NCBI GenBank assembly: GCA_947629985.1
Contig: CANRFV010000008.1
Span: 8,897 to 72,896 of the forward strand
Length of the DNA stretch: 64,000 nt
Origin: an uncultured Clostridia bacterium
GTDB lineage: Bacteria; Bacillota; Clostridia; Christensenellales; CAG-314
Direction: 5' to 3'
The notes below the pieces were generated by a model, which did no database searches, was not told where the DNA came from, and saw nothing but the letters and a program-made list of their open reading frames with translations. A program made the position numbers and the translations under genes. Of the stretch, positions 2,591 to 24,787 are shown one piece after another (positions within the stretch are counted from its first letter, which is position 1; every line of letters begins with the position of its first letter).

Positions 2591-2714
2591 ACGCAAAAAT
2601 ATCGGGCAAAAAAATCAAACAAAACTTTTTCAAACATTCCGCAATACATTAAAATATCAAAAACGTCATAGCGTTTGGGTTAATAATACATTTGGCAAAA
2701 AACATTTGTGAAAA
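2591..2714. repeat. left copy of a ~125-135 bp imperfect direct repeat bracketing the island
   Basis: 2591-2714 aligns with 24405-24540. The core 2631-2714 (caaacattccgcaatacattaaaatatcaaaaacgtcatagcGtttgggtTaataatacatttggcaaaaaacatttgtgaaaa) matches 24457-24540 with only 2 mismatches. The 5' part is more diverged and has an indel. Confidence 0.85.
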
Positions 2715-2790
2715 TGCAAGAAGTTTGAATCTGAAAAGCATAAAAAAATATTTTGCAATACTCCAAAATCATTGAAAATTAAAATGTGAT

Positions 2791-2841: not shown

Positions 2842-4670
<1,829 letters not shown>

Positions 4671-7452: not shown

Positions 7453-8586
7453 TTATCGCTCTAAAACTTTTTGCAAGGCATCTGCTATCACTATCACATC
7501 TTCGTCGCTATTATATTTCCCGATAGAAATTCGTATTGTCCCTTTTGCGACGGATTCTTCAACGCCAATCGCTTGTAAGACATGGGAAATCTGTGTGTTG
7601 ACACTATCACAGGCCGCTCCCGTAGATATAGCGATTCCCATAAGATCCAACCGATGAAGAACAGCTTCCCCATCAGCGCCGGGAAAAGAAAGGCTGATGA
7701 TCCCCGTGGCAACTTCCCCGCCGCCGTTTCTTATAAATCTACAATTCCTCTGATGCAGAGAGGCAAGAAGGAGATTTTCAATTCTTGAAATTTTCCTTGT
7801 GTATTCATCAAGCATTTCACAGTTTTTCTTCAAAGCAACTGCCATGCCGACAATGGAGGCGACATTTTCCGTACCGGCGCGAAATCCATATTCTTGCGCT
7901 CCCCCGTCGTTCAGCGAATGGATTTGGTTCCCTTTACGAATATAGAGAAACCCTACCCCCTTGGGCCCATTGAACTTATGCGCGGAGGCAGAAAGCATAT
8001 CAACCCCCAGTTCTTCTACGTCAACCTTAATATGCCCGACGGCTTGCACGGCATCGGTATGAAAAAGTGCTCCATGCCGATGTGCGACATTCGCCAATTC
8101 ACAAATCGGTTCAATCGTGCCGATTTCATTGTTTACCATCATGACCGACACAAGGCCCGTAGGTTCAGTCATGGCAGCTTCCAATGCGCCCGCCGAAACA
8201 ATGCCGTTATGATCTGAACGGATGTAGGTTACATGATAGCCCTGCCTTTCGATGGTAGAGCAGGCATTCAAAATCGCATGATGCTCAATGTTTGAAGTAA
8301 TGATCTGCCTTTTGGACGAATCGGCATAAGCAGTCCCTTTGATTGCCCAATTATCCGATTCTGTTCCGCCTGACGTGAAAAATATTTCTTCCGGAGAAGC
8401 CCCAATACACGATGCCACAATTTCCCTTGCCTCTGCGAGTGCTTTCCGAGACCTTCGGGCAAACGAATATGGCTGAGAAGCATTTCCATACTCATCCAGC
8501 AGAAATGGCTTCATGGCTTCAAAGGCACACCCATCTAATTTGGTTGTCGCCGCATTATCGGCATAAATATAGTGTTTCATAGTCAC
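7453..8586 (-). CDS. cysteine desulfurase (NifS/IscS/DndA-like class V aminotransferase)
   Basis: 377 aa. Motifs seen: YADNAATTKL N-terminus, the PLP-lysine motif SASAHKFNGPKGVGFLY, and the active-site Cys in ISTGAACDS. Its ATG (8586) directly abuts the stop of the upstream 69-aa gene (8587). Confidence 0.9.
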   Translation of the reverse strand: MTMKHYIYADNAATTKLDGCAFEAMKPFLLDEYGNASQPYSFARRSRKALAEAREIVASCIGASPEEIFFTSGGTESDNWAIKGTAYADSSKRQIITSNIEHHAILNACSTIERQGYHVTYIRSDHNGIVSAGALEAAMTEPTGLVSVMMVNNEIGTIEPICELANVAHRHGALFHTDAVQAVGHIKVDVEELGVDMLSASAHKFNGPKGVGFLYIRKGNQIHSLNDGGAQEYGFRAGTENVASIVGMAVALKKNCEMLDEYTRKISRIENLLLASLHQRNCRFIRNGGGEVATGIISLSFPGADGEAVLHRLDLMGIAISTGAACDSVNTQISHVLQAIGVEESVAKGTIRISIGKYNSDEDVIVIADALQKVLER

Positions 8587-8796
8587 TTATTTGAACAAAG
8601 TACACCCATCCTCTTTGAATTGCTCTATTTTTTCAAGCAATTCTTCCGTAGATGTATTCAAATACTCTGCCAAACACTCCATGCAATAAAAGTGTTCAAT
8701 CTCTTTCCCTAGCAATTTCTTATTAAGTGCTATCGTGTCCTTGTCCAAATCTTCCTTAAAACACGAAACACAATTCACTTTTACGTTAGTCATCAT
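8587..8796 (-). CDS. 69-aa four-cysteine (CxxC...CxxC) mini-protein
   Basis: MMTNVKVNCVSCFKED...HFYCMECLAEY...EDGCTLFK contains two CxxC pairs plus a fifth Cys. It overlaps the brxL stop by 11 nt and abuts the desulfurase ATG, consistent with translational coupling. Confidence 0.55.
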   Translation of the reverse strand: MMTNVKVNCVSCFKEDLDKDTIALNKKLLGKEIEHFYCMECLAEYLNTSTEELLEKIEQFKEDGCTLFK

Positions 8797-10258
8797 AAGC
8801 TATTATTTTGAAGTCGGGGACATCTTTCCCTTTGTACTCTTTGTCAATTAGAGCCTGTTGCATCCTCACGATAGAGCGCATTTTTACTGCCGGACTCAAA
8901 CAATATGTTTTGAAATCTTTTATTGTTATATCCGTTACCTTTCTCACGTTGGGGAACAACAACTTCAAGTATGCCGTAGCGATACGTTTAATTGCTTCTG
9001 TATCTCTTGTATCAGCCCTGTCAGGCACTTCAAGTAATCTGTCCACAATAGTACGATATGAAGCATCATCCCTCAAAGCATGAAGAATGGAACAAAAATA
9101 TTCTGAATTTAATGCCCAACCTGTCAATTTAAGGTTGTCGTTCATTCTTGGTATATCCCACCCTTTGATAAAGCCATGAATTCGATCCAACAAAGCGGTC
9201 TCTTGGAACAAAGGCGGAAGCTCATTTAGCATATAACTATATTCATCCATGTTGTCTTGGGCAATATTCCCCAAGAAAACTATTCCCGCATCTGCTTCGC
9301 CTTCGAATCCGTTGCAATTGAAAGTCCCGTATTCCATGTAACCCTGTAAAATCGAACGCATTTCGTTGTCATCGTTGAATTTTACGAGTTTAATTTCATC
9401 TATTGCTACAAAATCGTTTCCCTGAATGAAACCATACCTTCTTGATGCGTTGTCATAAAACATTTTCGAACGAGTTACCTTTCCCCCGTCAACTAATGTT
9501 CCGTATTTACTAACGTGTCCAAATAAATATGATTTTCCTGTTCCTTTGGGTGCCAACTCTATTATATTTAACCTCTTCTCTATAAACGGCAAGAGCCTTG
9601 TTAGCACAGCAAGTTTTTGATGCTCATCGTCATAGCCATCAGCATTATAATCGACAGCACCAAGAATAATATCTATCCATTCATGAACGTTAAATTCATT
9701 GCGAATATCTTTGTAAAATTCAAGGTCAACCGTATATGGACAGAAGTTCTTAAATGAGCATAGTTTTATTTTACCCTTTTCCTTATGCTTTGCTTTGTCA
9801 CCTTCAAACTTTATGTCAAAATCGTCAGGATATTTATATCCCAACTCGACTATTCCCCAAACGTCTCTCGCACTAATCAGTTCGTCCTTGCACTCCAACC
9901 AAACGTGAGGTTCAATAATTGTCTCGCGATTAGTCAATCCAAAGTCGGGCAAAGAGAAGGAAATCGACTGATCCGCAACGCTAATATCGACGGTTATCCT
10001 CGTCAAAAATTTGACCCTTTCTCCGCCGATAACAATTCTGTCCTTTATTGCTATCCAATCTTCCTTTTTGGGGATTCGCGTTGAAATGAAGTCACTCATT
10101 CCGTCATAATCAATATTTCCTTCGTCATCCTGAAAAATCTTGATTAAATAGTCCCTCAAAAATGACGGTAGGTTAATGCTTGAAAAGAAGCTGGTGTTCT
10201 TTATATCTTTATAAACGACCATATCGTCAAAATACTCTCTTAACTTATCCGTAGCCAT
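8786..10258 (-). CDS. brxL: BrxL-like AAA+ ATPase lacking the C-terminal Lon-protease domain
   Basis: 490 aa. Several blocks match remembered type 1 BrxL sequence: LREYFDDMVVYKDI, Walker A ELAPKGTGKSY, Walker B FVAIDEI, IVFLGNI and LDRIHGFIKGWDIPRM. The protein ends about 90 aa after this last block, with no Lon-like domain. Confidence 0.8.
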   Translation of the reverse strand: MATDKLREYFDDMVVYKDIKNTSFFSSINLPSFLRDYLIKIFQDDEGNIDYDGMSDFISTRIPKKEDWIAIKDRIVIGGERVKFLTRITVDISVADQSISFSLPDFGLTNRETIIEPHVWLECKDELISARDVWGIVELGYKYPDDFDIKFEGDKAKHKEKGKIKLCSFKNFCPYTVDLEFYKDIRNEFNVHEWIDIILGAVDYNADGYDDEHQKLAVLTRLLPFIEKRLNIIELAPKGTGKSYLFGHVSKYGTLVDGGKVTRSKMFYDNASRRYGFIQGNDFVAIDEIKLVKFNDDNEMRSILQGYMEYGTFNCNGFEGEADAGIVFLGNIAQDNMDEYSYMLNELPPLFQETALLDRIHGFIKGWDIPRMNDNLKLTGWALNSEYFCSILHALRDDASYRTIVDRLLEVPDRADTRDTEAIKRIATAYLKLLFPNVRKVTDITIKDFKTYCLSPAVKMRSIVRMQQALIDKEYKGKDVPDFKIIAYDD

Positions 10259-10264
10259 AATTTT

Positions 10265-12526
10265 TTACTCCCAAAGATTATTAGTTTTTGCGGATTCTTT
10301 TTCTACCACAAACGTGTTGTCCGATGAAACAAGTTCATCGCCTTCCCACACTTCAAATTGATACTCCCCCGCTTTTCTTATATCGTCTAATTCGGCGACA
10401 AAGTTGATGCCATCTTCTGTTTGCGTGTCATACGTTTTTCCATTGATCTTAATCAGGCAACGCGACAACTTTTTTGTACAGAAAAAGTGTAAAACTGCTT
10501 TCTTTTTGAAGCTGACTTTGATTACTTCATCAATCACTTTTATTTCCGCAAAGCTGACCTTCTCATATATTTCGATTATCGGCACTATGACTTCTTCCAA
10601 TGTCGCGCCGCCATGCATTTCCACCTTGCCGACTCTTCCACCTTTGAAGGCATTATAATCTGCCAATATATAATAGTCATCTTCTAATATGGCATTAGGG
10701 ATTTGTTTCATATCGGGAACAACTTTACAAACTCTCCCGCCATGTTCACCAACGGATTCAACATCCTCCTTGACCATCTCCGTGTTAAGGATAGCCAATC
10801 GCGTTGACCCGTGATCGGAGACAATTATAGCCTTCTTGATTGCTTGGCTCTTTATCTTTCTCCTTATACTGTCCAAACATTTATTGATGATTTTGAATTC
10901 TTCAATGATGTGAATTGGCAACTTCGTTTTATCAAAATCATAGTCATCCTTGCCGTCGTGTTTTAGCGTATCCAACTCTTTTTCATCTATAACATCTATT
11001 CCAATTTTGGCAAAATAACTTTTGAACTCGGTGTTCTTTACCGTAATCGTTGGAAGATTAGCTTTGCAAATGCTTATCTTGCAGACCAATCCTTTTTCTT
11101 GGCATTTTCTTTCTATAAAGCTCAAGAATTCCACGCCAAGAGCATCCACAAAGTATACAAGTGAATCTTCACAATTTATCTCGCCGATTTTTTCCGTTCT
11201 ATACACGACTCTGCGCTTGTATGAGCGCTCCACCGCCTCTGCATCCACCTTCTCCTTAAATTCAGGGGTGAGAGTATTCAGAACCTTCAAAAGTTTGTAT
11301 TCGTTGAAGTATTCCGTCAGGAAATCATCACCATAATTGTAGTCTACTAGATACTCATAAAGGTCGTTATAAACCCGCTTCAAAATCGTCAACAATTTAT
11401 TCTTCGTAAATTGAGATTTATACCGATCAATGATCTGTATTATGAGCTTCTTTTCGTTATCCGTGTTGTCGGTTAAATAATAGAGCGTATCCTCGTTTTT
11501 ATACTGAACGTACGAGCAATATTGATATATTGTTGTATCATCTTGAATTTCTTTTAGTATCCTCTTTCTGCTCTCGTATTTATCCCAGTAACCCTCTTCT
11601 TTATAATTTAAGCTCAAAATCGAATGATAAATATTGCTTATAAAGTCATTCACGGATTGCGATTTGTCTACCGAATAGTCAACCGCCCAATTCCCAGTTT
11701 TCGCTTCTTTGAGCTTCAAATAAATGAACAACAACCACTTTTCAAACGGTGTTTTATTGTTCCAATCCTTAATTTCAGAGATAATATCTCCCGTGTTTAT
11801 AAATTCTCTTATTGTTGCTTCTATTGAGCCTTCAATCAATTTTGTAAGAAGCAAGTTCCATTCATTATCGCTTCCCCATTTTCTATTCAGCTTCCGTGTT
11901 TGTTTATCTTTAAGACGAAGTAAATCATACGGCGTTTGACACTCCTCGATGCTTATCATCGACGTCGCAAAATCCGACTTGCAAAATCCTGTTATTACAT
12001 ATATTTTTTCGCCTTCGGTCTTTTCAACGCGTTGAAGTGCGCTCTTTAAGCCAATCTCGGCATTGACCATATTTTTGTAGGCATTAGATATAAATACCAA
12101 TGACGAAGAAAGCGGAACTTCTTCCTCCATCGAAGTAATTATGTTTTCCTTGTATTTGGGAATTTTCTCATCAAAGTACCTACCACATTGATACATTACA
12201 ATGATGAATTTCGTCGCGTAGGCTGTTCCGAGCAAGGAATGGATGGTTTTTTTGAATTCTTCTTTTCCCTTTAATCGAAGATATGTCCCAAGTCCATAAA
12301 TGAAGCAAAGCTCTTCATTACAGCAGTCCATATACTGATATATGTCTGCTGTATTGGGCAACTCGCTTCCCCAGTTAGCAAGATCAAAGACGACCTTCTT
12401 TTTCAGCATAAGGTATTGCTGAGAAAGTTCTTGTAAATCGTCTACATGAGAAACATCGACGATGAGCGGCCTCTTATCGTCGCTATTTCTGTATGCTTCA
12501 ATTCTGCGCTTAATCCATTCCTTCAT
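10265..12526 (-). CDS. pglZ: PglZ-domain (alkaline-phosphatase superfamily) protein
   Basis: 753 aa. The C-terminal half has LVYFVDALGVEFLSF and IIVSDHGSTRLA, which are the metal-site motifs typical of PglZ. Its position between brxC and brxL matches the BREX order. Confidence 0.8.
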   Translation of the reverse strand: MKEWIKRRIEAYRNSDDKRPLIVDVSHVDDLQELSQQYLMLKKKVVFDLANWGSELPNTADIYQYMDCCNEELCFIYGLGTYLRLKGKEEFKKTIHSLLGTAYATKFIIVMYQCGRYFDEKIPKYKENIITSMEEEVPLSSSLVFISNAYKNMVNAEIGLKSALQRVEKTEGEKIYVITGFCKSDFATSMISIEECQTPYDLLRLKDKQTRKLNRKWGSDNEWNLLLTKLIEGSIEATIREFINTGDIISEIKDWNNKTPFEKWLLFIYLKLKEAKTGNWAVDYSVDKSQSVNDFISNIYHSILSLNYKEEGYWDKYESRKRILKEIQDDTTIYQYCSYVQYKNEDTLYYLTDNTDNEKKLIIQIIDRYKSQFTKNKLLTILKRVYNDLYEYLVDYNYGDDFLTEYFNEYKLLKVLNTLTPEFKEKVDAEAVERSYKRRVVYRTEKIGEINCEDSLVYFVDALGVEFLSFIERKCQEKGLVCKISICKANLPTITVKNTEFKSYFAKIGIDVIDEKELDTLKHDGKDDYDFDKTKLPIHIIEEFKIINKCLDSIRRKIKSQAIKKAIIVSDHGSTRLAILNTEMVKEDVESVGEHGGRVCKVVPDMKQIPNAILEDDYYILADYNAFKGGRVGKVEMHGGATLEEVIVPIIEIYEKVSFAEIKVIDEVIKVSFKKKAVLHFFCTKKLSRCLIKINGKTYDTQTEDGINFVAELDDIRKAGEYQFEVWEGDELVSSDNTFVVEKESAKTNNLWE

Positions 12527-12537
12527 TTGACACTCCG

Positions 12538-15500
12538 TTACTTTTTCGTGTTTAGAATTTCAACGCCAACCGTTATATTCTCTGTGACAAGTTCCTTCAA
12601 ATATTTTCTTAACTCGTCAGAACCCATTGCATCTATAACAGCATTGACTTTTGCGCTTCCGCCGTTGATATACTTTTGATATGCAACTTTTGACACATAG
12701 TCTTCAATGGCGGCATTTCCCAACCAATTATAGGGGGAAATCATTGGGAACTTATTTCTGATTTTATCCTTAATGTCCTCGACATTATCAAATAGTGTCG
12801 TAAAATTGCGCAGTATGGCTTTTCTAAAACACGACTCTCTCGCATCAGCGTTCTTCAAGTTTCCATAGTGGTTAAATCGTGTCAGATACTCGATAGCATC
12901 ATCAATTTTAGACTTATCGCTTATTTGACTATTAATTACTTCAAACGATGCCCTTGCGTTTTCCTGCTCTGCCGCGGGAATCATACATAGTATAGGCATC
13001 GTATATTTGTTTGACCATGCCTCAGGGCTTTCAGTCCCTGTCCTTTCTTTCCACAAGGATAAAAGCCGATATTTAGACATATTTGCTTTGTATGACTTTA
13101 CTCCCGCATCCAACTTGGTTTGGAACTCACTATTCTCACAAGCAAATACGTTCGTCAGGTATCGTGAAGCGATTTCCGACACATCTTCATCTGAAAGCTC
13201 ATCAAGATAGAACGCTCCAATCTTTTTCAGTAAGGACAGCTGATTTTCGCAAAACTCCTTAAATCTTGCGCCTTGCGTTTTCAGCTCTGCCAAGAACTTT
13301 TCTTTATCTGTGTCATATATAAATCCATCACGGGAAATTTGATATAGGAATTCAAGGAGTCTTTGTAATTCTCCGACCTCCAACCGAACCGCACTATAAC
13401 TGACTTTGAATGTTTGGGCTTTCTTTCTCCACTCGTCTAAACAGTCGGCATACGAGGAAGTTCTGACAATCATTCCATTGCTTTCACTAACGATTTCATA
13501 CTCTGTTATTGTCTCATCAATTTTTTCGTCTATGGTATCCTTGTTCCACACCCAATTTGATGATTCACTAAATTTCTTACTGATTTCGTTGATGAATGTA
13601 CCCGTATCGCCTATCATTTGTGCAAGAGTAATCAGCCGTCCATCTTTGTAAACGCCCAAATACATTTGCATCCCTTGTGTGCAGTTTTCTCTTGTGAGTA
13701 TGTTTTTCAAATCATCTTGCAAATGCTCGTTTTGTGTGTAAAGCCTTCCGATTTCGAGAGCGATGTCTGTTTCCGTTTTTTGCGTAGAAGAATTGTTCGC
13801 CAATTCAACATACAAGTCAACCAGTTCATCGAGAATGGCTTTCGAGTTAACGGTGTTGTATTCGACATATTTCAACGTCCAAATCGGAAATCCGAACGAT
13901 GTCATTTTAGTTCTGACATACGACCTTGTGTTTTCGATTGAGGAACAAAGTTTTTCATCAATGCCAAAAACAAACGAAGTTCCCTTATTAAACGCTCTCT
14001 GTTCGGGCGACATGGCAACAATGTACTTTGTTCTGTATTTAGGATTGGGTGTTTGTTGCTGCTTGATGATTTCATCAATCATCTCTTTCATCTTTTCAAC
14101 CGACATTGGATCGGTTGTTACATCATCCGTCCAATTGTATGAATCATTGGCATATTCTCTCAATACAAAACCCAAAACAAACGCAGAGAGATTGCAGGGC
14201 ATAAAACCAAACGGGGGTTCAATCAATGCATCGTATATATCAGAAATTGATACTCGCGTCCCCGCGTCTAAATTCTTTGCAATGACATCTTCTACTGCAA
14301 TTTTAACCCTCGATAAAAGTTCATTGGGTCTTGTTTTCCAGTAGTTTTCAACATTCCAAACCCCTGCAAATTGTTTCTCCAACTTTGTATTTTCATTGGG
14401 GGATTTGAATGTTCCCTTAATTTCTCCTGTAATTCCACATTCGGCACCTTGTTTAAGAGCGTTCGATGCATACATATTGTCGATTACATTGACGTGCGTT
14501 TCCAAAGAGAATTCAAAGTGTTCCCTGTCGAATTCTTTGAGAATTGAAATTACTTCTGATTCGGAATTACACATTGTCCCAATTCGATCCGAATATGTAA
14601 ATAACCTTGGGGTGGAAGTTTTGATTTGTATTTTCCACCGCTTCAATGCTTCCTTTGCGTTTTTGTAGTAGGTCGCAGACTGACCATTGTCCTTGCCCCT
14701 CTGATAATTGCCGTTTGCCATATTCTCAACAAATTGCTCAAACAAATCATTGTTGAGATACGTCGCCGAATAGTCTATGAAAACTATTTTGTCAAATTCG
14801 TCATTGAAAGTTTTTTCAATTTCAACTCTTATTTTGGTACTCTCTTCTTCGTTGCGCGCAAACGCATAGACCGCGTAAAGTCGTGTCGGATGATTGGCGG
14901 AATCCGACCTTAATTGAGCGACTGTCATTCTAATATTTTCGTATGTAACAAGTCTAACATTGGGAAATCTTATTTCCAAATGTTTAGGAAGTTTGAAATC
15001 ATTAACAAATTCTCCCTCCTCAACTAACTTGTCCGTTCTAATCTCGCTTCTAAGCCTCACTTTTTCCTGTTCTATTTCTTCACGATTCCCATTTGAAATA
15101 AGCGCAGAATATTTTGTCGCGCCGGCTCCCATTGGACGTTCAAAAATAATTTGTTCTCCAACCAAGCTCTGTGCTAATGAGGCGGCATTGCTAATAGAAA
15201 TATCTGTTCCCTCAAACGCCAATCCGAGGTTTTTAGCGTTTGGAATAAACAAAGAAACCGAATCCCCAACTTTTTCATTGATCGCTTGAAGCAACAAAAT
15301 AGTTTTTAGTACCCTTTTCTGCTTTGCCATCAAATTATGAGACTCTGTCCTTCCATAAACATCTAAAATAGACCTGATTTGAGGTGCTAATTGATCCTTC
15401 CCCTTTTCATAGAAGAAATCCCAAAGCATATCAACAGTCAATAAAGTTTCATTATCCTCGGGTCCATAGTTGTCAATGAACCATTGGAAGCTCTTAATTT

Positions 15501-16740
15501 CATCGCCCCTATCGTTTTTTATGAAATCAAACATACTTCTTTGGTTTGAGTCAAATGCCGAAGCGATATGTTTCAAAACGAGCGCAGCATACGGATGAAT
15601 CGGAAGTACACCTTTTAATTCCCTTTCTCCGATTTTTGCCGCTTTAATAACTTCGTTCCGTGAATCGTGAGTTAAATCATATAACTCATCAACAATCTGA
15701 TCCCAATCTTGTATAACCGCAGGATCGTTGACTTTTTGCATCGCGTGTGCAGTTAAAACAAAAGCCATATTATCAGGCAATTCAATCGAACAATGCGGTG
15801 CGATGAATCTCCCGTTAATTTTCGTTTTTATGTCATCATTGGTATTCTCAAAAAATATGTCCGATTTATGAGTAACAATCGCAAAGTAAAATGGATGCGA
15901 TTCGCTCATTTCTGCCATATATTGAAAGCCTGATAAGTTCCCCTTGTTGATTTCAAAGTAGTCGGAAAACTCATCCCAGATAAAGAAGATTGCCTTCAAG
16001 TTATTTTTATCAATGACATCAAGTATCCATGTCCTTAAATCCTCCTTTTTAAGAACGAATGGCTTGATTCCCTTTTCTTCGCCAACTTGCGAGATTTTCT
16101 CAATCAAGGATTGCAATGCTTTTTCGGACGTGTATGTTTTCAAATTCTCCAACACAACATCTGCGTTTGCACCTGCGAAGCGAACCCTATACTCACCCGA
16201 CTGAATGATGTTGTTAAAGTAATTCTTGTTTGCATCGTCGGAAAGCCAATTTATCATTGCCTGTTTAATACCGACTTGTCCCAAGTATTCATATCCCTTT
16301 TCACGCAGAGCAGAAATGATACTCTCCTGAATACTCTCCATCAGGATACGATCATTCTTAATTTCAGACGAACCCATTCTATGAACAGCAAGTACCTTTT
16401 TAGGCTGATTCTTGATGCTGTAAAACTCGTTGTACAGGTCGTTGGATAAAACAGTCTTATACCTGTCAAAATACTCCTTTAACTCTTCATTTGAACAGTC
16501 TAACAATTTTTTTAATGTCAAAACGGCATGAGACTTGCCTGTTCCATAAGCTCCTTCAACCCAAATTGACATTCTTTGCCCGTTAGTTAATACGCTCTTG
16601 GTTTGATTGAGAAGTCTGATAAACGAATCATGCGGATAATATGATTTCCAGACATTCGGCTGAGTCCTGATGACGTCCTCATTAACCGCAGGGAAATAGC
16701 TTTCGTTGATTTGAAAATAGTTTCTATACTTCTTACTCAT
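12538..16740 (-). CDS. brxC: BrxC/PglY-like large P-loop ATPase
   Basis: 1400 aa. Walker A is IWVEGAYGTGKSHAVLTLKKLL and Walker B is IFFIWDEFSDY, in the same N-terminal context as BrxC. AGGAGA lies upstream of the ATG. Confidence 0.7.
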   Translation of the reverse strand: MSKKYRNYFQINESYFPAVNEDVIRTQPNVWKSYYPHDSFIRLLNQTKSVLTNGQRMSIWVEGAYGTGKSHAVLTLKKLLDCSNEELKEYFDRYKTVLSNDLYNEFYSIKNQPKKVLAVHRMGSSEIKNDRILMESIQESIISALREKGYEYLGQVGIKQAMINWLSDDANKNYFNNIIQSGEYRVRFAGANADVVLENLKTYTSEKALQSLIEKISQVGEEKGIKPFVLKKEDLRTWILDVIDKNNLKAIFFIWDEFSDYFEINKGNLSGFQYMAEMSESHPFYFAIVTHKSDIFFENTNDDIKTKINGRFIAPHCSIELPDNMAFVLTAHAMQKVNDPAVIQDWDQIVDELYDLTHDSRNEVIKAAKIGERELKGVLPIHPYAALVLKHIASAFDSNQRSMFDFIKNDRGDEIKSFQWFIDNYGPEDNETLLTVDMLWDFFYEKGKDQLAPQIRSILDVYGRTESHNLMAKQKRVLKTILLLQAINEKVGDSVSLFIPNAKNLGLAFEGTDISISNAASLAQSLVGEQIIFERPMGAGATKYSALISNGNREEIEQEKVRLRSEIRTDKLVEEGEFVNDFKLPKHLEIRFPNVRLVTYENIRMTVAQLRSDSANHPTRLYAVYAFARNEEESTKIRVEIEKTFNDEFDKIVFIDYSATYLNNDLFEQFVENMANGNYQRGKDNGQSATYYKNAKEALKRWKIQIKTSTPRLFTYSDRIGTMCNSESEVISILKEFDREHFEFSLETHVNVIDNMYASNALKQGAECGITGEIKGTFKSPNENTKLEKQFAGVWNVENYWKTRPNELLSRVKIAVEDVIAKNLDAGTRVSISDIYDALIEPPFGFMPCNLSAFVLGFVLREYANDSYNWTDDVTTDPMSVEKMKEMIDEIIKQQQTPNPKYRTKYIVAMSPEQRAFNKGTSFVFGIDEKLCSSIENTRSYVRTKMTSFGFPIWTLKYVEYNTVNSKAILDELVDLYVELANNSSTQKTETDIALEIGRLYTQNEHLQDDLKNILTRENCTQGMQMYLGVYKDGRLITLAQMIGDTGTFINEISKKFSESSNWVWNKDTIDEKIDETITEYEIVSESNGMIVRTSSYADCLDEWRKKAQTFKVSYSAVRLEVGELQRLLEFLYQISRDGFIYDTDKEKFLAELKTQGARFKEFCENQLSLLKKIGAFYLDELSDEDVSEIASRYLTNVFACENSEFQTKLDAGVKSYKANMSKYRLLSLWKERTGTESPEAWSNKYTMPILCMIPAAEQENARASFEVINSQISDKSKIDDAIEYLTRFNHYGNLKNADARESCFRKAILRNFTTLFDNVEDIKDKIRNKFPMISPYNWLGNAAIEDYVSKVAYQKYINGGSAKVNAVIDAMGSDELRKYLKELVTENITVGVEILNTKK

Positions 16741-16751
16741 AACTTTCTCCT

Positions 16752-19109
16752 TTAGAACAACCCAAGAACGTCGTTCGATGTTTTATCGTTTTTCAAATTG
16801 ATGTTGTCCAATCCAAGGGTGAACGAAACGGATATAAATTCGGGGTAGTTAATTGCCAACCCTTGCAGTAACTTTTCCATTATATCACGATTCAATCCAA
16901 ATATTTCAGTTGGGCTGATACCATCACTTTCAATATCATGATTTAGAAGGCGTGTAAGCGAGAACTGATAGTATTCACCGCAATTTTCTGCAAATTTGTA
17001 AAGCGAATATAGAACAACCTTTGGATCAGGGTCATCCCATGAAACACGCATTATGCTGTTCAACTTTCTTTTGCCATTTTTGACTTCATAATCACACTTA
17101 CCCAACCCTATTTCTTCCGATAACGGTTTAATGGAGATAAAAGTATTCTTGAACGCACTTGCTATGTGATCCTTCGTGTTCTCTGTTAAGTTTGAGTCTA
17201 ACATACCAATTAGGAGATTCGTATCCACATAAGAATTGAATTCTATGTGCTTGATCCACCAGTTAAACTCTGCTGTGTATGCAAGATTCGACAGCATCAA
17301 TCCCCAAGCGGATACATCGTCAACTCCCATAGCCATAACCAATCTGCCAAACGACGTGATTTGATTCTTCTCGGTTATGCCCGCATCTTTAAGAAAGTTT
17401 TTGAAAACGTCAATCTTCTTGCTTCCGAGACTATGAGTTTCCCAAAAAGTATCGCCTTTTTCAAAAAACTCCTTTACCCACTCGTATTCAATTCCGAAGT
17501 TCGTGTATCTGTCAATACTGCCCATTTTTCTCTCTCCTTTTGGTAATTTAAGTGATGCCGAAACCAAGCACCCATTGTCTATATCATAACATTTCTTACA
17601 TTTTACACATTGATTATCTATGCGAACAACGTTATTGTCAAATGAAATATATCCGTTGGGGCAGTTTGCTTCGCAAACACGACAGCCGATACAATAACAC
17701 GCCTTTCGCAAAACCGTTTTTAGATATGAGCCGAAATATATATCGTTCCGTGAATTCGATGATACATCGACCGTGAAAATAAGCGCATCCGTTTGTTCCT
17801 CTATATGAATGACATATATTTTGTTCTCATATACAACTTCCGCTCGATTATCCTCAATGGACACAATGCGTCCAAGTGTTTTTAACCACTCGCACCATTG
17901 GGCGTTTTTGTTTTTGATTGTTACCGTCAATATGCCATCTTTCAGTTCATCGAAATACACAGGTTTTGCAATATTTAACTCTCTGCCACTCCTTCTTGCT
18001 TTCCAACCGCCTATGTTCATGAATTCTTCTATTGCTTTCTGCGAACTCAAGTCTTTTGAGGTTGTTTCAAGTATAATATCGTTGAATGTTTTCGTGGTAT
18101 TTTCGCCGTTTACAGATGTACCGTAGCATTCCATTTTTATGTAGGAATTCTTTTGCCCCGCCAACGGGCAAATTAAACATCCTGCTCTGCTGTTCCCCTT
18201 TTTATAAGCATCATTAAGCGGAAGTCCTTGCTGATATATATACAGAAATAGTTCAGCCGTATTCCAATCAAGTATAGGATGGCAACTATATTGTCCCTTT
18301 ACTTTTTCGCCAAGACTAACTTCCTCATATTCGCTTCGAGATTCGCTTTCGTCGCCTCGTACTCCTGTAAAAGCCATTCCCTTAAATTGACTGTTTTTGA
18401 GATATTGTCGCAAAAACAAAATCTGCGGAGTCGATTTATGTACACTACAACACCATCTTAATCGTTGAGCCGGGGGCCCGAAAACTCTCCAGGAATCTTT
18501 GGGGTCTAAATGAGATTTAGATATATAAAATCTTATTCCTTTTTTTTCGCAGTCAGCTTCTACCTGTTTGACAAGTTGATATGTATCCGAAAATTCCATG
18601 CCTGTGTCGCCAAACAACACTATAAAATCGCTATGCGGCAAAGACCGTTGTACAATGTCTAACGCCACAATGCTATCTTTCCCTCCGCTGAAGGCGACAT
18701 AGAATATATCTACTTTATCCTTATATTTTAGATATTGTCCATACGTCTTTTTAATGGTATGCTGAACCATTTGATCTAACAGCTTCCTGTTCTTATCAAC
18801 CATCTTCGCAACATTAACGAACTGCAATGGAGCATCGTCAGGTTCTGGCTGATCTAAAAATACTATCTCGGGCGCACTACACATTGCACCGCCCTTTGTT
18901 TTTGCGACTACTCTCCCCTTGTAAATATAGGTATTTGCTTCTGCCCACATATATGGAAACGAGTCGTCCTTTGCATACTTCCACACTTTGTCAAAACCTA
19001 AAATGTCCAACTCTTGATAGTAGACAGGTCTCGGCTCTCTGCTCATTTGCAAAGGGGAACTGTTTAGAAGCAAGCCGCCCGTTTCCGTATCCCACTCGTA
19101 TGAATACAC
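16752..19109 (-). CDS. brxP: BrxP: PAPS-reductase/PP-loop ATP pyrophosphatase with Fe-S cluster motifs (DndC/SspD-like)
   Basis: 785 aa. The PP-loop is VAFSGGKDSIVALDIV. Ferredoxin-like Cys clusters are CYCIGCRVCEANCP and CVKCKKCYDIDNGC. The GTG start has AGGAGG 9 nt upstream, inside the end of the preceding gene. Confidence 0.8.
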   Translation of the reverse strand: MYSYEWDTETGGLLLNSSPLQMSREPRPVYYQELDILGFDKVWKYAKDDSFPYMWAEANTYIYKGRVVAKTKGGAMCSAPEIVFLDQPEPDDAPLQFVNVAKMVDKNRKLLDQMVQHTIKKTYGQYLKYKDKVDIFYVAFSGGKDSIVALDIVQRSLPHSDFIVLFGDTGMEFSDTYQLVKQVEADCEKKGIRFYISKSHLDPKDSWRVFGPPAQRLRWCCSVHKSTPQILFLRQYLKNSQFKGMAFTGVRGDESESRSEYEEVSLGEKVKGQYSCHPILDWNTAELFLYIYQQGLPLNDAYKKGNSRAGCLICPLAGQKNSYIKMECYGTSVNGENTTKTFNDIILETTSKDLSSQKAIEEFMNIGGWKARRSGRELNIAKPVYFDELKDGILTVTIKNKNAQWCEWLKTLGRIVSIEDNRAEVVYENKIYVIHIEEQTDALIFTVDVSSNSRNDIYFGSYLKTVLRKACYCIGCRVCEANCPNGYISFDNNVVRIDNQCVKCKKCYDIDNGCLVSASLKLPKGERKMGSIDRYTNFGIEYEWVKEFFEKGDTFWETHSLGSKKIDVFKNFLKDAGITEKNQITSFGRLVMAMGVDDVSAWGLMLSNLAYTAEFNWWIKHIEFNSYVDTNLLIGMLDSNLTENTKDHIASAFKNTFISIKPLSEEIGLGKCDYEVKNGKRKLNSIMRVSWDDPDPKVVLYSLYKFAENCGEYYQFSLTRLLNHDIESDGISPTEIFGLNRDIMEKLLQGLAINYPEFISVSFTLGLDNINLKNDKTSNDVLGLF

Positions 19110-19112
19110 TAT

Positions 19113-22100
19113 TTAGACCTCCTTCTTGGCTTGCTCAATCAATGCCAACATATTTTTGACTTTCCTCGTTCTAATATAGTCATTTGCAAGGAGATACTCA
19201 AATGCTCTTTCTTCATCAAAGAGTTTATGCTCTTTTATAATATCAATTAGTAAGTCATCGAAACCATGAATATCGGAATCTTTCTTGACTATGGCACCGA
19301 CGGGCTTATCCCCATTAAACGATGCGTGTATTAAGCCATATTTTTTACTTCCAAAATACACATAGCTCTCAAGAACAAATGCGTTCCAATTGACCTCAAT
19401 TGTCGGAAAATCGGTATAGTTAATTATATCAGCAAAAGGGACATACTTATTTAGGCAATAGCTCGCAATTGCCTCATCAATTTGTTCTGCCTTAAACGTA
19501 ATTAGATCGCGCCGTATAAATGAACTCTGAGATGTTCTAACCGACGAGGACATAACGGCATCCCAATCAATATAGTTCTTGTCAATGCTATTTCTGAACT
19601 CTTCGAGTTCTGCAAAAGAAAACTTTTCCCTCTGTTCGCAGAAGCCTCTATATAGTGATTTTACATCGACAACAAATCCAAGTCTGCTAATTACGTCGCC
19701 CCGAAAACTGTATTTATGTTCCAACTTTATCCGTATTATGTTTTTGATACCCAAATCCGTCACGCCCGGATTTGTCTCAGGCACCTCGGGGATCTCTTTG
19801 GCGATATACCCATACAGTTCCCCTCCGCTTACTTGTTCAACGACGGATAAACGTCGAGCGAGAAATTCATCTATCATAGATAGCTGTTCTTCATCGAGAA
19901 TAAACACATCCTTATAGAAATACGATCTTCCGCGGTAGTTGACAACGAAATCTCTATCTCGTATCATCGCATCAATAACTGAATGAGCGGCATTTGGCAA
20001 TGCATCATACAGTTCATCTATATCCATCGGACGTCCCTTGTTCATGAATATACTAATTAGCTCTTCCCGCAGATTAGCCTGAATTCCTTTGGGCGTCATA
20101 AAGTCAAGATAATAGGAATATTCATCGGCAAACACAAAAGCAAAATAGCTTTTCAACATATCTTCGCTGAACAAGCTGTTGAATTTGCTACTAAACTTTT
20201 CATACAAGGCAGAATAGTATATTGCCGACGTACTATCAAAACTCTCATCGATATATTTTTTTATCTCATTTCTTAATTCTTTCGGGACAATCGATTCAAG
20301 ATAGACTTTTCCTTCGCTTATAAAGCCAGCTATCCTTACTTTGCGTAAAAACAGTTCATCAGAGTCCTCGAAAGGCTTATTTAATATCTCCTCATATCGA
20401 CGAATAAATTTACGCTTTCTTAATGGATTTTCAAAAGCAAAACCATCTGAAAACGAATCCTCTATCACAACCTTGTAATCCTCGGCTTTTGGCTCCACGG
20501 CTTTGATTGATTGGCTGTTCAGTCCTAAATCTGCATGATTAGATTTAAGAAATCCTTCATATCTGCTTAAAGCATATAAAAACCACTCGTATTTTTCGTC
20601 TTTCTCATAAGGCTTCAACTGTCGCCGAATATCATCCAGTTCGGATGTCGTTACCACAGACAAAATATCCTTATTAAGGAGAGAACTTATTTCCCTTATC
20701 ATGTCAACACATTTTTGGGCATGATGAGGCGCTCGGTGTTTTTTCCCATCGACCTGATGCCTTTCCATGTATTGAGTTTTGATATATGTATAAAAATCCG
20801 CCTCCGAAATAGAAACCGAGTAATGAGTTTTCTCCGCTACCTTTGGAAGAGTATCCGTACCGTCCTTTTCCTCATATTCTATAATCAAACTCGAATAATG
20901 AATCTCGCATTTGTCCATAAATGACTTCATAGACTTGACTAATTCCGTCGCGCTTCTATTCCCTTCTGCATAAATATGATTTACAATCTCTAACGGACGG
21001 CGCAAGTCTGTTCTGTTATAAGAGAGGAAAGTATAGCTCGGATTTTTTGCGAGTTCGTTAAATATACCTGCGAACTCGTCATACATTGCCTTTACGACAT
21101 ACTTATAACATTCTATCCAGTTGCTGAATCCCTCTCTACTATTATCCTTGTAATTAACCTTCGTCGGACTTGTAAAGCTCATATTTTTAATTGCCTGCCA
21201 ATTAACCGACTTTACTTTTTGCGATTGTAATGTTCCTTTTACAAGAGCATGGGCTTCTCGTAAAATAGCCTCATATTCCTGCCTATTTTGAAGATACAAC
21301 TTTGCCATTTCGTCAAAAATCGCGGTCTTATGCATAGATGCGCGGTCAGGATAAAACGAACTGGCTAAATTTGCCATTTGAATACTGATCCCGTTTATGT
21401 TTCTAAACGTATCGTCTATTTCTATCCCTTGATTTTGAGCTTTTGCTCGGAGATCACGAGATAACTGTTCGATAACTCCACTTCGTAATGTCTTATCGCC
21501 CTCAATTTTCCAAAAAGCCTCAATGAGCAACACGGTTTCATACTTGTCCCACACTATACGCCTTGGCGTAACTCTTTCGGTTACTCTTGATTGAGGTTGT
21601 TCGGCTTCGTTGTTACTTGCAAAATCGGGTACAGTTCGACGTGCGTAATCTTCGTCGCTAATCTCTATATAAGATGGATGCCCTGCTTGCATTGTTTTTT
21701 GGTCAGGTTGTCCGTCAAATTGAACGATGATCGTTTCCTTCTCTTTTTTGACTATTCGTCCAAAACCGAAAGATTTATGATAGACATAACTTTTTTCGTC
21801 GTCTTCTAATAATATTTCTTGTTCGTGAGCAAGAAAATACGCATTTACAGCATCAACATATTGATAGTATTTTGACAAGTCAAAAGCATAAGCCGATGAT
21901 AAATCAATCGCCTCGACCTCAATTTTGGCGAATTTCATTATGCCATTTTTGTCGGCATAAAACCTTAATCTTTCATTCGCCTTTTTTGCACCAATAATTG
22001 CGCTTCTTATATCCAAAAAGATGTTGGCGTCGCTATCTTTTGCATATTCAAATATGCGATAGAAAAGATGTGCGACATCTTTATTCTGAAAGAAGTCAAT

Positions 22101-22460
22101 GCATCGAGCCTGTTCGTCTATATATTTTTCTTCCACAGCATCGGATTCTTTTTCTTCCTCGACATGAGCTGTTTGGAGCTTACCGTCCTGTTCATCCGAT
22201 GCCATTGACAAAAACAGGAGATAATATTTGCAATAAAGCGTAAATGCTTTATGTGTCTTCTTTTGCTTTTTCTTGAAATTCTTGTTAGTAAGTAATCTGT
22301 CCCGTAATACAGCAAATTCCTTTGCATCCACAGACCAAACGTCTCTTCCAAGATAAAGTGAAAAGGCGTCCTCCATTAAGTCCGCAAATTGTTTGGGCGT
22401 TACTTTCTTCAACTTGTCGGAAGCAACCCAATCTATAAATTGCTGTTTTCTTGTTCCCAT
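19113..22460 (-). CDS. 1115-aa orphan protein, first gene of the BREX-like operon (function unknown)
   Basis: This is a long uninterrupted ORF, and its stop is 3 nt from the brxP start. I saw no Walker A, no SAM-binding or (D/N/S)PP(Y/F/W) motif, and no nuclease motif. It contains an H-x2-FG-x-G-x-V...V-x-F mini-domain (YVYHKSFGFGRIVKKEKETIIVQFDG) and an FRNINGISIQMANL block. Confidence 0.6.
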   Translation of the reverse strand: MGTRKQQFIDWVASDKLKKVTPKQFADLMEDAFSLYLGRDVWSVDAKEFAVLRDRLLTNKNFKKKQKKTHKAFTLYCKYYLLFLSMASDEQDGKLQTAHVEEEKESDAVEEKYIDEQARCIDFFQNKDVAHLFYRIFEYAKDSDANIFLDIRSAIIGAKKANERLRFYADKNGIMKFAKIEVEAIDLSSAYAFDLSKYYQYVDAVNAYFLAHEQEILLEDDEKSYVYHKSFGFGRIVKKEKETIIVQFDGQPDQKTMQAGHPSYIEISDEDYARRTVPDFASNNEAEQPQSRVTERVTPRRIVWDKYETVLLIEAFWKIEGDKTLRSGVIEQLSRDLRAKAQNQGIEIDDTFRNINGISIQMANLASSFYPDRASMHKTAIFDEMAKLYLQNRQEYEAILREAHALVKGTLQSQKVKSVNWQAIKNMSFTSPTKVNYKDNSREGFSNWIECYKYVVKAMYDEFAGIFNELAKNPSYTFLSYNRTDLRRPLEIVNHIYAEGNRSATELVKSMKSFMDKCEIHYSSLIIEYEEKDGTDTLPKVAEKTHYSVSISEADFYTYIKTQYMERHQVDGKKHRAPHHAQKCVDMIREISSLLNKDILSVVTTSELDDIRRQLKPYEKDEKYEWFLYALSRYEGFLKSNHADLGLNSQSIKAVEPKAEDYKVVIEDSFSDGFAFENPLRKRKFIRRYEEILNKPFEDSDELFLRKVRIAGFISEGKVYLESIVPKELRNEIKKYIDESFDSTSAIYYSALYEKFSSKFNSLFSEDMLKSYFAFVFADEYSYYLDFMTPKGIQANLREELISIFMNKGRPMDIDELYDALPNAAHSVIDAMIRDRDFVVNYRGRSYFYKDVFILDEEQLSMIDEFLARRLSVVEQVSGGELYGYIAKEIPEVPETNPGVTDLGIKNIIRIKLEHKYSFRGDVISRLGFVVDVKSLYRGFCEQREKFSFAELEEFRNSIDKNYIDWDAVMSSSVRTSQSSFIRRDLITFKAEQIDEAIASYCLNKYVPFADIINYTDFPTIEVNWNAFVLESYVYFGSKKYGLIHASFNGDKPVGAIVKKDSDIHGFDDLLIDIIKEHKLFDEERAFEYLLANDYIRTRKVKNMLALIEQAKKEV

Positions 22461-22570: not shown

Positions 22571-22984
22571 TTACGTTGTTATATAATCATTAAAAATTGT
22601 GAAGTCCCCATTGACCATGCGCTTGGCAAGACTATCGGATTGCTCCTTATCCAAACCGTTTAATAACTTAATGCTATCGTAAGCACCCTTCATAATTAAA
22701 TTGGAAATCTCACCTTGAAGTTCGTTATATAAATCATCGAGAGATAAATTCCACAATACATCAATTTTTGAATTCAAAGCTTTTACAGCTGTTTCTATAA
22801 CAGCTACGATAGGATTATCTATGCGTACATATATAATAAAATTTTCAATTTCATAGCGAGGAACAGAATAAAATTTGTCACTATAATTGAGTGCTTTATT
22901 ATAATTTTCTACATCCTTACTCAAATCGTGTGATTTAGCTACTCTTTCGAATATTTCAAAACACTTTTCTATAAATGTCATCAT
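22571..22984 (-). CDS. 137-aa hypothetical protein, start abutting the stop of the PDDEXK nuclease gene
   Basis: Its ATG (22984) abuts the stop of the upstream nuclease gene (22985). No recognisable motif. Confidence 0.5.
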   Translation of the reverse strand: MMTFIEKCFEIFERVAKSHDLSKDVENYNKALNYSDKFYSVPRYEIENFIIYVRIDNPIVAVIETAVKALNSKIDVLWNLSLDDLYNELQGEISNLIMKGAYDSIKLLNGLDKEQSDSLAKRMVNGDFTIFNDYITT

Positions 22985-23974
22985 CTATTCCTCACTTTCC
23001 GCAAGTTCGATATATTCCTTCAACTTCCTTTGAAGCAGGTTTTTATCGATGAGTTTGAGTTTGTATTCCGAAACCATCGTCGGCGAAAGTGAACGGCTCA
23101 AGGCGTACTCAACGACCTCATCGTCCTTCTTCGCACAAAGAATGACGCCGACGCTCGGATTTTCATTCGGCTTTTTCACATCGCGGTCAAGAGCCTCAAG
23201 ATATAGATTCATTTTGCCGACATACTCTGGCTTAAATTCGTCGATCTTCAGTTCAAATGCTACAAGACAGGAAAGCCCCCGGTGATAAAAAAGAAGATCA
23301 ATATAATAGTCGTGTCCGCCAACTTGCAAGCGATATTCCTCGCCGACAAACGAAAAATCCTTGCCGATCTCCAAAATGAAATTTTTCAAGTTTTGCACGA
23401 TTGATTTTTGCAAATCTTTTTCGTTGGCAACTTCGGGAACATCAAGAAATTCAAGAGTGTAGGTATCAAGAAACACATTTGACGTGCTTCGCTTTGCCTC
23501 GGTGATGGCGGGAGTCGTCGGCTTTTGAGAAAGCATATAGCGCTCGTAATATGCGCTGTCTATTTGGCGTTCGAGTTCACGAGTGCTGTATTTTTCTTTT
23601 GCGCATAGCGCCATATAAAAGTAGCGTTCTTCGTCTGACTTACAAGCAGACATAATTTGAAGATGATTTGTCCAACTCAATTGTGTCAGCAGTGCTGACA
23701 CTTTTTCATCCTCGCCGTAGAGTTCGTAAAACTGACGCATGCGATAAAGCCCACGACGGGTAAACCCTTTGAGCTCGGGATAATTTTTCGCAAAGAAGTC
23801 GGCAAGTCCTTCCACATAGGCATCGCCGTAAGCTGCGTCACGAGAATTTTCGGAAACATATTTGCCGATCTGTAAATACATTCCAATGAGTTCCTCGTTC
23901 ACCTTATAGAATGCGCGCTCTCGCGCAGACTGTATAATTTTTACAATTTCCGAATAGTTATTGTCGGGTAGCAT
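22985..23974 (-). CDS. PDDEXK-family nuclease, DUF1016/YhcG-like
   Basis: The N-terminal block is NNYSEIVKIIQSARERAFYKVNEELIGMYLQIGKYV...LSWTNHLQIMS. The C-terminal nuclease core is YIDLLFYHRGLSCLVAFELKIDEFKPEYVGKMNLYLEALD. I chose the ATG at 23974 (GGAG ~8 nt upstream) over the track's GTG at 24028. Confidence 0.75.
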   Translation of the reverse strand: MLPDNNYSEIVKIIQSARERAFYKVNEELIGMYLQIGKYVSENSRDAAYGDAYVEGLADFFAKNYPELKGFTRRGLYRMRQFYELYGEDEKVSALLTQLSWTNHLQIMSACKSDEERYFYMALCAKEKYSTRELERQIDSAYYERYMLSQKPTTPAITEAKRSTSNVFLDTYTLEFLDVPEVANEKDLQKSIVQNLKNFILEIGKDFSFVGEEYRLQVGGHDYYIDLLFYHRGLSCLVAFELKIDEFKPEYVGKMNLYLEALDRDVKKPNENPSVGVILCAKKDDEVVEYALSRSLSPTMVSEYKLKLIDKNLLQRKLKEYIELAESEE

Positions 23975-23984
23975 AGTTATCTCC

Positions 23985-24194
23985 TTACTCCTCGGTTTCA
24001 ACGATTTCCATAATGTCGGAAATATCACACTTCAAAACCTTGCATATCTTCAAAAGAATCTCAAGATTGACAGGCTCATTTTTGCCGAGTTTTGCAAGTG
24101 CCGTTGTCGTCATACCCGTGGCAAGCCGCAGATCCTTTTTCTTCATATCTTTGTCAATCAGTAATTTCCATAGTTTCTTATAACTGACCGCCAT
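23985..24194 (-). CDS. XRE/Cro-C1-family HTH transcriptional regulator
   Basis: MAVSYKKLWKLLIDKDMKKKDLRLATGMTTTALAKLGKNEPVNLEILLKICKVLKCDISDIMEIV is a single HTH_3-type domain. The ATG at 24194 has GAGAGG upstream. Confidence 0.8.
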   Translation of the reverse strand: MAVSYKKLWKLLIDKDMKKKDLRLATGMTTTALAKLGKNEPVNLEILLKICKVLKCDISDIMEIVETEE

Positions 24195-24748: not shown

Positions 24749-24787
24749 CAAAAAAGTCTCCCGATGATACGTCGATCATCGGGAGAC
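24749..24787 (-). terminator. rho-independent terminator of valS
   Basis: A 13-bp stem, gtctcccgatgat (24756-24768) / atcatcgggagac (24775-24787). An A-run at 24750-24755 on the + strand gives a U-run after the hairpin on the minus strand. It lies 29 nt past the valS stop. Confidence 0.8.

Follow-up and report, generated by a model that had tools for sequence, protein, structure and literature searches.

The window analysed here is a 64-kb stretch of DNA (64,000 nucleotides (nt), contig CANRFV010000008.1) from an uncultured Clostridia bacterium. It contains an operon of seven minus-strand open reading frames (ORFs), extending from position 22460 down to 7453, that encodes the core of a type 4 bacteriophage exclusion (BREX) system together with a cysteine desulfurase, a small cysteine-rich protein, and a large unannotated protein, which we call X. 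In operon order, the genes are separated by gaps of 3, 11, 11, and 6 nt, followed by an 11-nt overlap and a junction of 0 nt. Gene identities were assigned using hidden Markov models (HMMs) from three libraries, Pfam, PADLOC, and NCBIfam, the results of which agree. The operon is composed of the following genes:

19113..22460, minus strand: X, the first gene, encoding a multi-domain, predicted DNA-binding, unannotated protein of 1115 amino acids (aa)
16752..19109, minus strand: brxP, 785 aa, matching PADLOC BrxP and PAPS_reduct
12538..16740, minus strand: brxC/pglY ATPase, 1400 aa, matching PADLOC BrxC
10265..12526, minus strand: pglZ of the BREX-4 subtype, 753 aa, matching NCBIfam NF033445 BREX_PglZ_4
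8786..10258, minus strand: brxL, short form, 490 aa, with BrxL_N and BrxL ATPase domains
8587..8796, minus strand: gene of the small cysteine protein, 69 aa, with a start that lies 11 nt inside the end of brxL
7453..8586, minus strand: cysteine desulfurase, 377 aa, class-V aminotransferase fold, DndA/SspA/NifS-like

BrxP matches the PADLOC BrxP model over residues 1–783 (E 1.7e-239) and can be divided into three parts. The 3'-phosphoadenosine-5'-phosphosulfate (PAPS) reductase/PP-loop domain spans residues 137–316 (Pfam PAPS_reduct, E 5.5e-28) and carries the motif SGGKDS at positions 141–146. A ferredoxin-like cysteine cluster at residues 471–514 includes CIGCRVCEANCP at 473–484 and CVKCKKC at 501–507, and the conserved cysteine region has the pattern CxxCxxCxxxC plus CxxCxxC. 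The C-terminal module, residues 533–741, matches a second, stand-alone BrxP/DUF4007-type model of PADLOC (E 2.4e-12). The match of BrxP to the SspD model is weak (E 5.6e-13), as is that to DndC, and its score with TIGR03183, the equivalog model of DndC, is 21.6 bits, where the cut-off is 290.4. BrxC matches its PADLOC model over the full length (E 2.2e-250) and has intact Walker A (GAYGTGKSH, residues 63–71) and Walker B (IWDEFSD, residues 254–260) motifs; its matches to SspC models are weaker (E 2.7e-20). Although genuine, the similarities to SspD and DndC (for BrxP) and to SspC (for BrxC) lie hundreds of bits under those to the BREX models. PglZ scores 371.7 bits with NF033445 (cut-off 140), is also recognized by Pfam DUF7864, DUF7863, and DUF7862 and by PADLOC PglZ (E 2.2e-74), and contains the motif IIVSDHGS at residues 567–574 (SDHG, 570–573). 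BrxL scores 381.6 bits with TIGR02688 (cut-off 329.3), matches PADLOC BrxL (E 7e-202) and Pfam BrxL_ATPase (E 1.5e-106), and has the sequence GTGKS at residues 239–243.

No protein of the island that carries the operon matches a methyltransferase family in Pfam, NCBIfam, or PADLOC, a search in which C5-methyltransferase motifs were not scanned separately, and none of the stop-to-stop frames of at least 100 aa in the whole window contains a (D/N/S)PP(Y/F/W/H) string. The locus combines BrxP, BrxC, a type 4 PglZ, and BrxL in a cluster that includes neither PglX nor PglXI methyltransferase, and by this gene content the window carries one intact BREX type 4 defence operon. An initial annotation, made from the letters of the DNA alone, had listed the same seven ORFs, and its coordinates and spacings agree exactly with the ORF list; every motif that it quoted is present in the respective protein. 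Its assignments of BrxP, BrxC, PglZ, and BrxL are all upheld by the HMM searches, its cysteine desulfurase is recognized by the DndA and SspA models with E of ~1e-127 and by Aminotran_5, and the absence of a methyltransferase from the island, which it had read by eye, agrees with both the family searches and the motif scan.

The desulfurase matches Pfam Aminotran_5 with E of 1.1e-82 and the PADLOC models of DndA (E 7.1e-127) and SspA (E 8.6e-127). The pyridoxal-phosphate (PLP)-binding lysine, K204, is located in the motif SAHKF (residues 201–205), and the catalytic Cys326 in the motif GAAC (residues 323–326). The neighbouring 69-aa protein was described in the initial annotation as a four-cysteine mini-protein; it is indeed a small cysteine protein, but its translation contains five cysteines, at positions 9, 12, 38, 41, and 65. 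They form a zinc-ribbon-like CxxC...CxxC pair and a fifth cysteine, C65, within a C-terminal EGCxLF motif. The HMM matches of the protein are all sub-threshold. All five cysteines are invariant in the window copy and nine orthologues, and the orthologues are 58–72% identical across lineages in which the identity of PglZ is down to ~31–34%. As a speculative side remark, C65 could carry a persulfide. The protein fits the "small zinc-finger protein" reported beside type 4 desulfurases (PMC12839542), and the operon has both marks of a type 4 BREX sulfur module, a desulfurase that adjoins the BREX-4 core and a small cysteine-rich protein next to it.

The seven-gene layout recurs in other genomes. 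Ten genomes were retrieved through an alignment of type 4 PglZ, and the neighbouring genes were located by tblastn; they belong to Eubacteriales, Gemmiger formicilis, Christensenella, Fusobacteriaceae, Acetanaerobacterium, Christensenellales, Desulfosporosinus, Mitsuokella, Lachnospiraceae, and Anaerovorax. In all ten, a gene homologous to that of the 1115-aa protein lies directly 5' of brxP, and the 69-aa gene and the desulfurase lie directly 3' of brxL in nine of them. The neighbourhood survey that had been proposed as a check of the initial annotation thus found the desulfurase, the cysteine protein, and the 1115-aa homologue beside the BREX-4 core in 9/10, 9/10, and 10/10 of the PglZ-anchored genomes, respectively. 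The same set of seven genes is present in two further systems anchored on BrxP. The small gene overlaps brxL by 11–14 nt in seven of the nine genomes, and in loci L016 and L017 the small gene begins 1–3 nt past brxL. Because the same order and tight spacing recur in independent genomes, the seven-gene arrangement is not a product of chance.

The exception among the ten is locus L012, from a metagenome-assembled genome (MAG) of Fusobacteriaceae (JAITPM010000109.1, 2828–13722), which encodes X, a 261-aa remnant of BrxP, BrxC, PglZ, and BrxL, flanked by housekeeping genes. Of BrxP, only the DNA-binding part remains; the PAPS-reductase domain is absent from the locus, as are the 69-aa gene and the desulfurase. 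As judged from its genes, L012 is a BREX-4-like system without a visible modification enzyme. This variant, a single case, fits an arrangement in which the PAPS-reductase domain, the 69-aa protein, and the desulfurase would form one sulfur module. Decayed operons were also observed: L083 (13186–18872) and L053 (8536–11076) consist of X and a truncated brxP followed directly by a brxL fragment and the 69-aa gene, with brxC and pglZ deleted or reduced to a fragment. The desulfurase is kept in L083, and there is no desulfurase match in L053.

Protein X had been regarded as an orphan in the initial annotation. It is unannotated, with no match in Pfam, NCBIfam, or PADLOC, nothing meaningful when its profile is compared with sequences in the PDB (best E 0.32), and no tblastn match among PLSDB plasmids. 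Its family nevertheless comprises thousands of proteins, in at least 1387 clusters, and is strictly linked to brxP. A word-index homologue search recovered 33 relatives, none of them named; three of these (one 55% identical to X, one 25% identical, and an 822-aa short form) are each encoded directly before brxP-brxC-pglZ-brxL. When 1.84 billion representative proteins were searched exhaustively with a profile, 3471 relatives were identified with E<=1e-3, of which 1387 have E<=1e-30, and the rarity suggested by the word-index search is therefore an artefact of its sensitivity. The family shares a constant C-terminal module of ~460 aa, preceded by variable N-terminal parts, so that total lengths range from 474 to 2030 aa; the best-matching stretches end at the C-terminus of the X profile. 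The X protein of the window has the constant module and is encoded immediately upstream of brxP, the two features that define the family. Members that carry any name in their source are called "hypothetical protein", such as WP_211494050.1 from Fusobacterium, and the family also occurs in an Alistipes sp. MAG, in the same operon.

The linkage of X to the BREX-4 core was quantified in metagenomes, where 432 relatives of X were found and 80 loci were kept. Counting the loci with enough sequence downstream of X (at least 1.5 kb in the case of BrxP), BrxP is encoded directly downstream in 74/74 testable loci, BrxC downstream in 62/64, PglZ in 52/55, and BrxL in 52/54. BrxP typically starts ~30 nt past the end of the X match in these loci, and in most loci the stop codon of X is 1–6 nt from the brxP start or overlaps it. 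Bacillota, Fusobacteriota, and Bacteroidota all contain linked X and brxP. X as a separate neighbouring system is ruled out by the 74/74 linkage and the 1–6 nt coupling to brxP. When the window is compared with the related locus L001, X changes faster than its partner proteins: the identity is 55% for X, 77% for PglZ, 83% for BrxP, 84% for BrxC, and 95% for BrxL. Genes of WYL/WCX proteins (BrxR-type regulators) adjoin or overlap the start of X in L004 (8950–10008), L023 (2396–2962), and L110 (1143–2123); the window contains no WYL/WCX gene.

The structure of X was predicted using AlphaFold2 with a mean predicted local distance difference test (pLDDT) score of 83.7 and a predicted template modelling (pTM) score of 0.40. 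The low pTM value together with confidently predicted domains is consistent with separate domains connected by flexible linkers. The model contains the following domains:

N-terminal part: helical domain, residues 1–91; alpha/beta domain, 114–216; PcrA/UvrD-like Tudor barrel, 225–267
Middle part: conserved helical module, residues 301–408; alpha/beta domain, 418–531; helical domain, 551–646
C-terminal part: about six tandem winged-helix units, residues 660–1059; helical tail extending to residue 1115

Residues 660–1059 are predicted to form repeated helix-helix-helix-strand-strand units, for which Foldseek identified tandem winged-helix arrays of UFL1 (8qfc_B, E 2.5e-4), SelB, Dcc1, and ESCRT-II; the matched structures include 8b9x, 4zu9, and 2ply. 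The barrel at residues 225–267 superposes on the C-terminal Tudor domains of UvrD/PcrA (7egt_B, template modelling (TM) score 0.77, root-mean-square deviation 1.9 Å; 5dma, TM score 0.69), and a Foldseek search with the N-terminal half alone recovered this Tudor/SH3-like barrel and nothing else. The resemblance to UFL1, SelB, Dcc1, ESCRT-II, and PcrA/UvrD is at the level of the fold only, with sequence identities of 9–22%, and implies no common function. In the helical module 301–408, residues W304, E308, R338, D349, and R353 are invariant in the family, and at least 90% of its sequences have N354, N356, and G357. Neither an enzyme fold nor a catalytic motif was found in X, and a Foldseek comparison with viral structures gave no match at E<=1e-3. 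We also considered the winged-helix array as a paralogue of the DUF4007-type module of BrxP, which was rejected because of an hhalign probability of 0.15%. Other members of the family have different heads, including RNA polymerase alpha C-terminal domains (alpha-CTD) and sigma region 4, integrase SAM-like, Sel1, and DUF4357 domains. Two alpha-CTD and a sigma-70 region 4 precede the constant module in P0113 (1859 aa, L023 3937–9516) and P0170 (2030 aa); P0113 is encoded directly upstream of brxP.

Type 4 BREX systems that modify DNA with sulfur have been described previously. Yuan et al. (bioRxiv 2024; Nat Commun 2026; PMC12914056) found BREX type 4 through the neighbourhoods of DndC and SspD homologues and detected dinucleotides with phosphorothioate (PT) in Bacteroides salyersiae DSM18765 as well as in further gut isolates with brx genes only. 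Deletion of brxC abolished PT, the modification was rebuilt in B. thetaiotaomicron from brxP and brxC with the SufS of the host, and the swapping of BrxC between species failed (PMC12914056). Published work indicates that PT can be made with brxP, brxC, and a cysteine desulfurase alone and that pglZ and brxL are dispensable for it. The B. salyersiae operon, in which PT needs brxP, brxC, and a cysteine desulfurase (PMC12914056), has the brxP-brxC-pglZ-brxL core without PglX in common with the window, and in both systems BrxP combines an SspD-like PAPS-reductase and a DNA-binding module in one fused protein. The two differ in that the B. salyersiae operon includes an mcrA-like gene and uses the host SufS, whereas the window operon, from an uncultured Bacillota-like host, has no McrA-type reader but a desulfurase and five-cysteine mini-protein of its own.

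Rakesh and Krishnan (NAR 2026; PMC12839542) reported a desulfurase in 255 of 457 type 4 BREX taxa (56%), proposed it as a candidate sixth core component, and noted a small zinc-finger protein that co-occurs with it. All six of their parts are present in the window, namely BrxC, the PAPS-reductase with DUF4007, PglZ, BrxL, the desulfurase, and the zinc-finger protein, and the additional Fe-S (iron–sulfur)-like cysteine region that they described in BrxP also occurs in the window BrxP. Their main text lists five major components and the desulfurase, with no X-like gene upstream of brxP, in contrast to the presence of X in every related locus examined here. An X-like component is likewise not described in the main text of PMC12914056. 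BREX is not mentioned in Rakesh, Aravind and Krishnan 2024 (PMC10853773).

The operon follows the same logic as SspABCD with SspE or SspFGH, in which SspA is the desulfurase, SspD the PAPS-reductase, SspC the ATPase, and SspB the DNA-binding/nicking module. However, BREX models always match the window proteins best, with a margin of hundreds of bits, the part that resembles SspB is fused to BrxP, the places of SspE or SspFGH are taken by PglZ and BrxL, and X has no Ssp counterpart. The separate SspB, SspC, and SspD of an SspABCD system are not found, and no window protein is matched by SspE or SspFGH in PADLOC. With DndABCDE-DndFGH, the operon shares a DndA-like desulfurase and a DndC-like PP-loop sulfurtransferase of the kind that puts sulfur into the DNA backbone, but it contains no DndD, DndE, DndB, or DndFGH: BrxP does not reach the level of a DndC equivalog, and neither DndD nor DndE has a match. 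The initial annotation had proposed a BREX/Dnd-Ssp hybrid with a linked desulfurase that marks DNA with sulfur instead of methyl groups. The hybrid composition is upheld, and PT was demonstrated for BREX-4 of B. salyersiae (PMC12914056); as new ideas, both proposals were preceded by publications, the sulfur marking by PMC12914056 and the hybrid by PMC12914056 and PMC12839542. A sulfur-marking BREX without a methyltransferase and with its own desulfurase is already established, and the window locus is a good but ordinary example of it from an uncultured gut-type bacterium. The new lead is X, which is a large family without a name in any source checked, locked to brxP across three phyla in all of the loci examined.

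We consider it likely, with a probability of about 0.8, that the operon is a PT-marking BREX-4 system that places sulfur instead of methyl groups on the host DNA. How sulfur flows at the window locus, and what the 69-aa protein and X do there, is inferred. The PLP-dependent desulfurase (K204, C326) would draw sulfur from L-cysteine as a persulfide, probably aided by the strictly co-conserved 69-aa five-cysteine protein. The persulfide sulfur would be passed to BrxP, with its PP-loop ATP-pyrophosphatase, ferredoxin-like Fe-S cysteine cluster, and C-terminal DNA-binding module, and BrxP and the BrxC ATPase would put it at a non-bridging backbone oxygen within a short motif of the host DNA. PglZ and BrxL, together with BrxC, would exclude incoming unmodified phage DNA. 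X, which is predicted to be non-catalytic, has many putative DNA-binding modules, and is translationally coupled to brxP, would most likely serve as a DNA-targeting, specificity, or sensing scaffold of the complex.

Several points weigh against this interpretation. The desulfurase matches the NCBIfam equivalogs of DndA, NifS, and IscS, but is under the cut-offs of all three (328.5 bits on the DndA equivalog TIGR03235, with a cut-off of 480), and therefore its exact partner is inferred from linkage. The host of the window system is known from metagenome assemblies only. BREX-4 variants with a desulfurase are said still to await a study of their anti-phage activity (PMC12914056). No named BREX, Ssp, or Dnd protein is detectably similar to X, and the "unknown" B. 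salyersiae gene Bs02795 is dispensable for PT (PMC12914056); should Bs02795 be the orthologue of X, X would not be needed for modification. By analogy to DndA and DndC, where the desulfurase also builds an Fe-S cluster, the role of the desulfurase in DNA modification may be indirect.

In an alternative explanation, the desulfurase and the 69-aa protein would serve privately to mature the Fe-S cluster of BrxP, and the sulfur for DNA would be supplied by housekeeping IscS or SufS. BrxP does have a conserved CxxCxxCxxxC plus CxxCxxC region, DndA is reported to build DndC up into an Fe-S protein (work cited in PMC12839542), 44% of type 4 BREX taxa have no linked desulfurase and presumably use housekeeping enzymes (PMC12839542), and the SufS of a heterologous host was enough for PT (PMC12914056). 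The same enzyme, however, is the accepted sulfur donor of Dnd as well as Ssp systems, and one role does not preclude the other; the close translational coupling, and the loss together with the PAPS-reductase domain in L012, suit both equally. We regard a purely maturational role as unlikely. Far less credible still is that the sulfur is destined not for the DNA backbone but for another target, such as tRNA or a small molecule. Enzymes of tRNA thiolation do belong to the PAPS_reduct superfamily (PMC12914056), and BrxP is far under the equivalog cut-offs of CysH as well as DndC, but its full-length match is to the BREX BrxP model (E 1.7e-239), it is fused to a DNA-binding module common to stand-alone BrxP/SspB-like proteins, brxP is located inside the BREX core, and orthologous brxP and brxC yield PT dinucleotides in DNA (PMC12914056).

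The assignment of any specific role to X is tentative. It is possible, though we would not favour it over the sum of the alternatives, that X is an unrecognised core BREX-4 subunit, the modular, fast-changing DNA-binding head and constant winged-helix body of which pick the PT motif or recognise unmodified or foreign DNA for PglZ and BrxL. If so, X would be the counterpart of the role of PglX in methylating BREX systems and would explain the sequence specificity of PT in BREX-4. A fast-changing, predicted DNA-binding protein that is always beside brxP is an obvious candidate for the choice of the PT motif or for non-self recognition. In a bolder variant, the RNA-polymerase-derived pieces of the X family could act as integrated baits for the detection of phage host-takeover proteins; the baits could be the PcrA-type Tudor domain in the window X and the alpha-CTD and sigma region 4 in its relatives. 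That X is instead mainly a transcriptional regulator of the operon, similar to BrxR, and no working subunit appears improbable to us. X is made of helix-turn-helix-type modules and is the first gene of the operon, some of its relatives include sigma region 4 and RNA polymerase alpha-CTD, and the dispensability of Bs02795 for PT (PMC12914056), should that gene be the X orthologue, would agree with a regulator. On the other hand, X, with 700 to 2000 aa that include a constant module of 460 aa and about six units of winged-helix type, is far above the size of known regulators, and separate BrxR-type WYL/WCX genes are present beside X in L004, L023, and L110. The placement of its stop codon at the brxP start in most loci suggests stoichiometric co-production, and its faster change than the enzymes (55% versus 77–95% identity, window versus L001) is more typical of specificity or sensing subunits.

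The operon is located in an island with the following further features:

2587..2725: left direct repeat, one of the ~130–145 nt repeat copies
2842..4482, minus strand: large serine recombinase at the left end of the island, matching Pfam Resolvase, Recombinase, Zn_ribbon_recom, and DUF4368
22571..24194, minus strand: upstream cargo block, separated from X by a 110-nt gap, whose membership in the BREX system is not shown, consisting of the next three genes
22571–22984, minus strand: 137-aa protein with no family match
22985–24028, minus strand: YhcG/DUF1016 PD-(D/E)XK nuclease (Pfam YhcG_C, E 5.7e-56; DUF1016_N, E 1.5e-41)
~23985–24194, minus strand: HTH_26-type protein of 69 aa, assigned from the identical contigs L019 and L020
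24401..24551: right direct repeat, just downstream of the valS terminator (24756–24787)

The two repeat copies are ~21.8 kb apart, 91% identical over 100 nt, and share an exact 20-mer. Between them, the GC content is 37–41%, compared with ~50% outside, and the insertion site of the island lies just downstream of the valS gene and terminator. Read along the plus strand, it contains the serine recombinase, small unknown genes, a sigma region 4 protein, and the operon, followed by the 137-aa protein, the YhcG/DUF1016 nuclease, and the HTH_26 protein. The serine recombinase is likely the mobility gene of the 21.8-kb island, and the direct repeats, the recombinase, and the low GC content together identify the BREX-4 operon as the predicted cargo of this mobile element. 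A valS-to-X junction identical to that of the window was found in metagenome assemblies only. DUF1016 genes are also located at the desulfurase end of the BREX-4 operons L104–L106 (~22241–22361 / 18800–18920). The YhcG/DUF1016 nuclease beside BREX-4 may be a recurrent auxiliary nuclease or common island cargo. Just outside the left repeat, at 2041–2385, there is a gene of a MazF/PemK-family toxin (PemK_toxin, E 8.2e-37). The flank has a GC content of ~50–54%, with dips to 43–47% at ~40000–42000 and 47000–50000.

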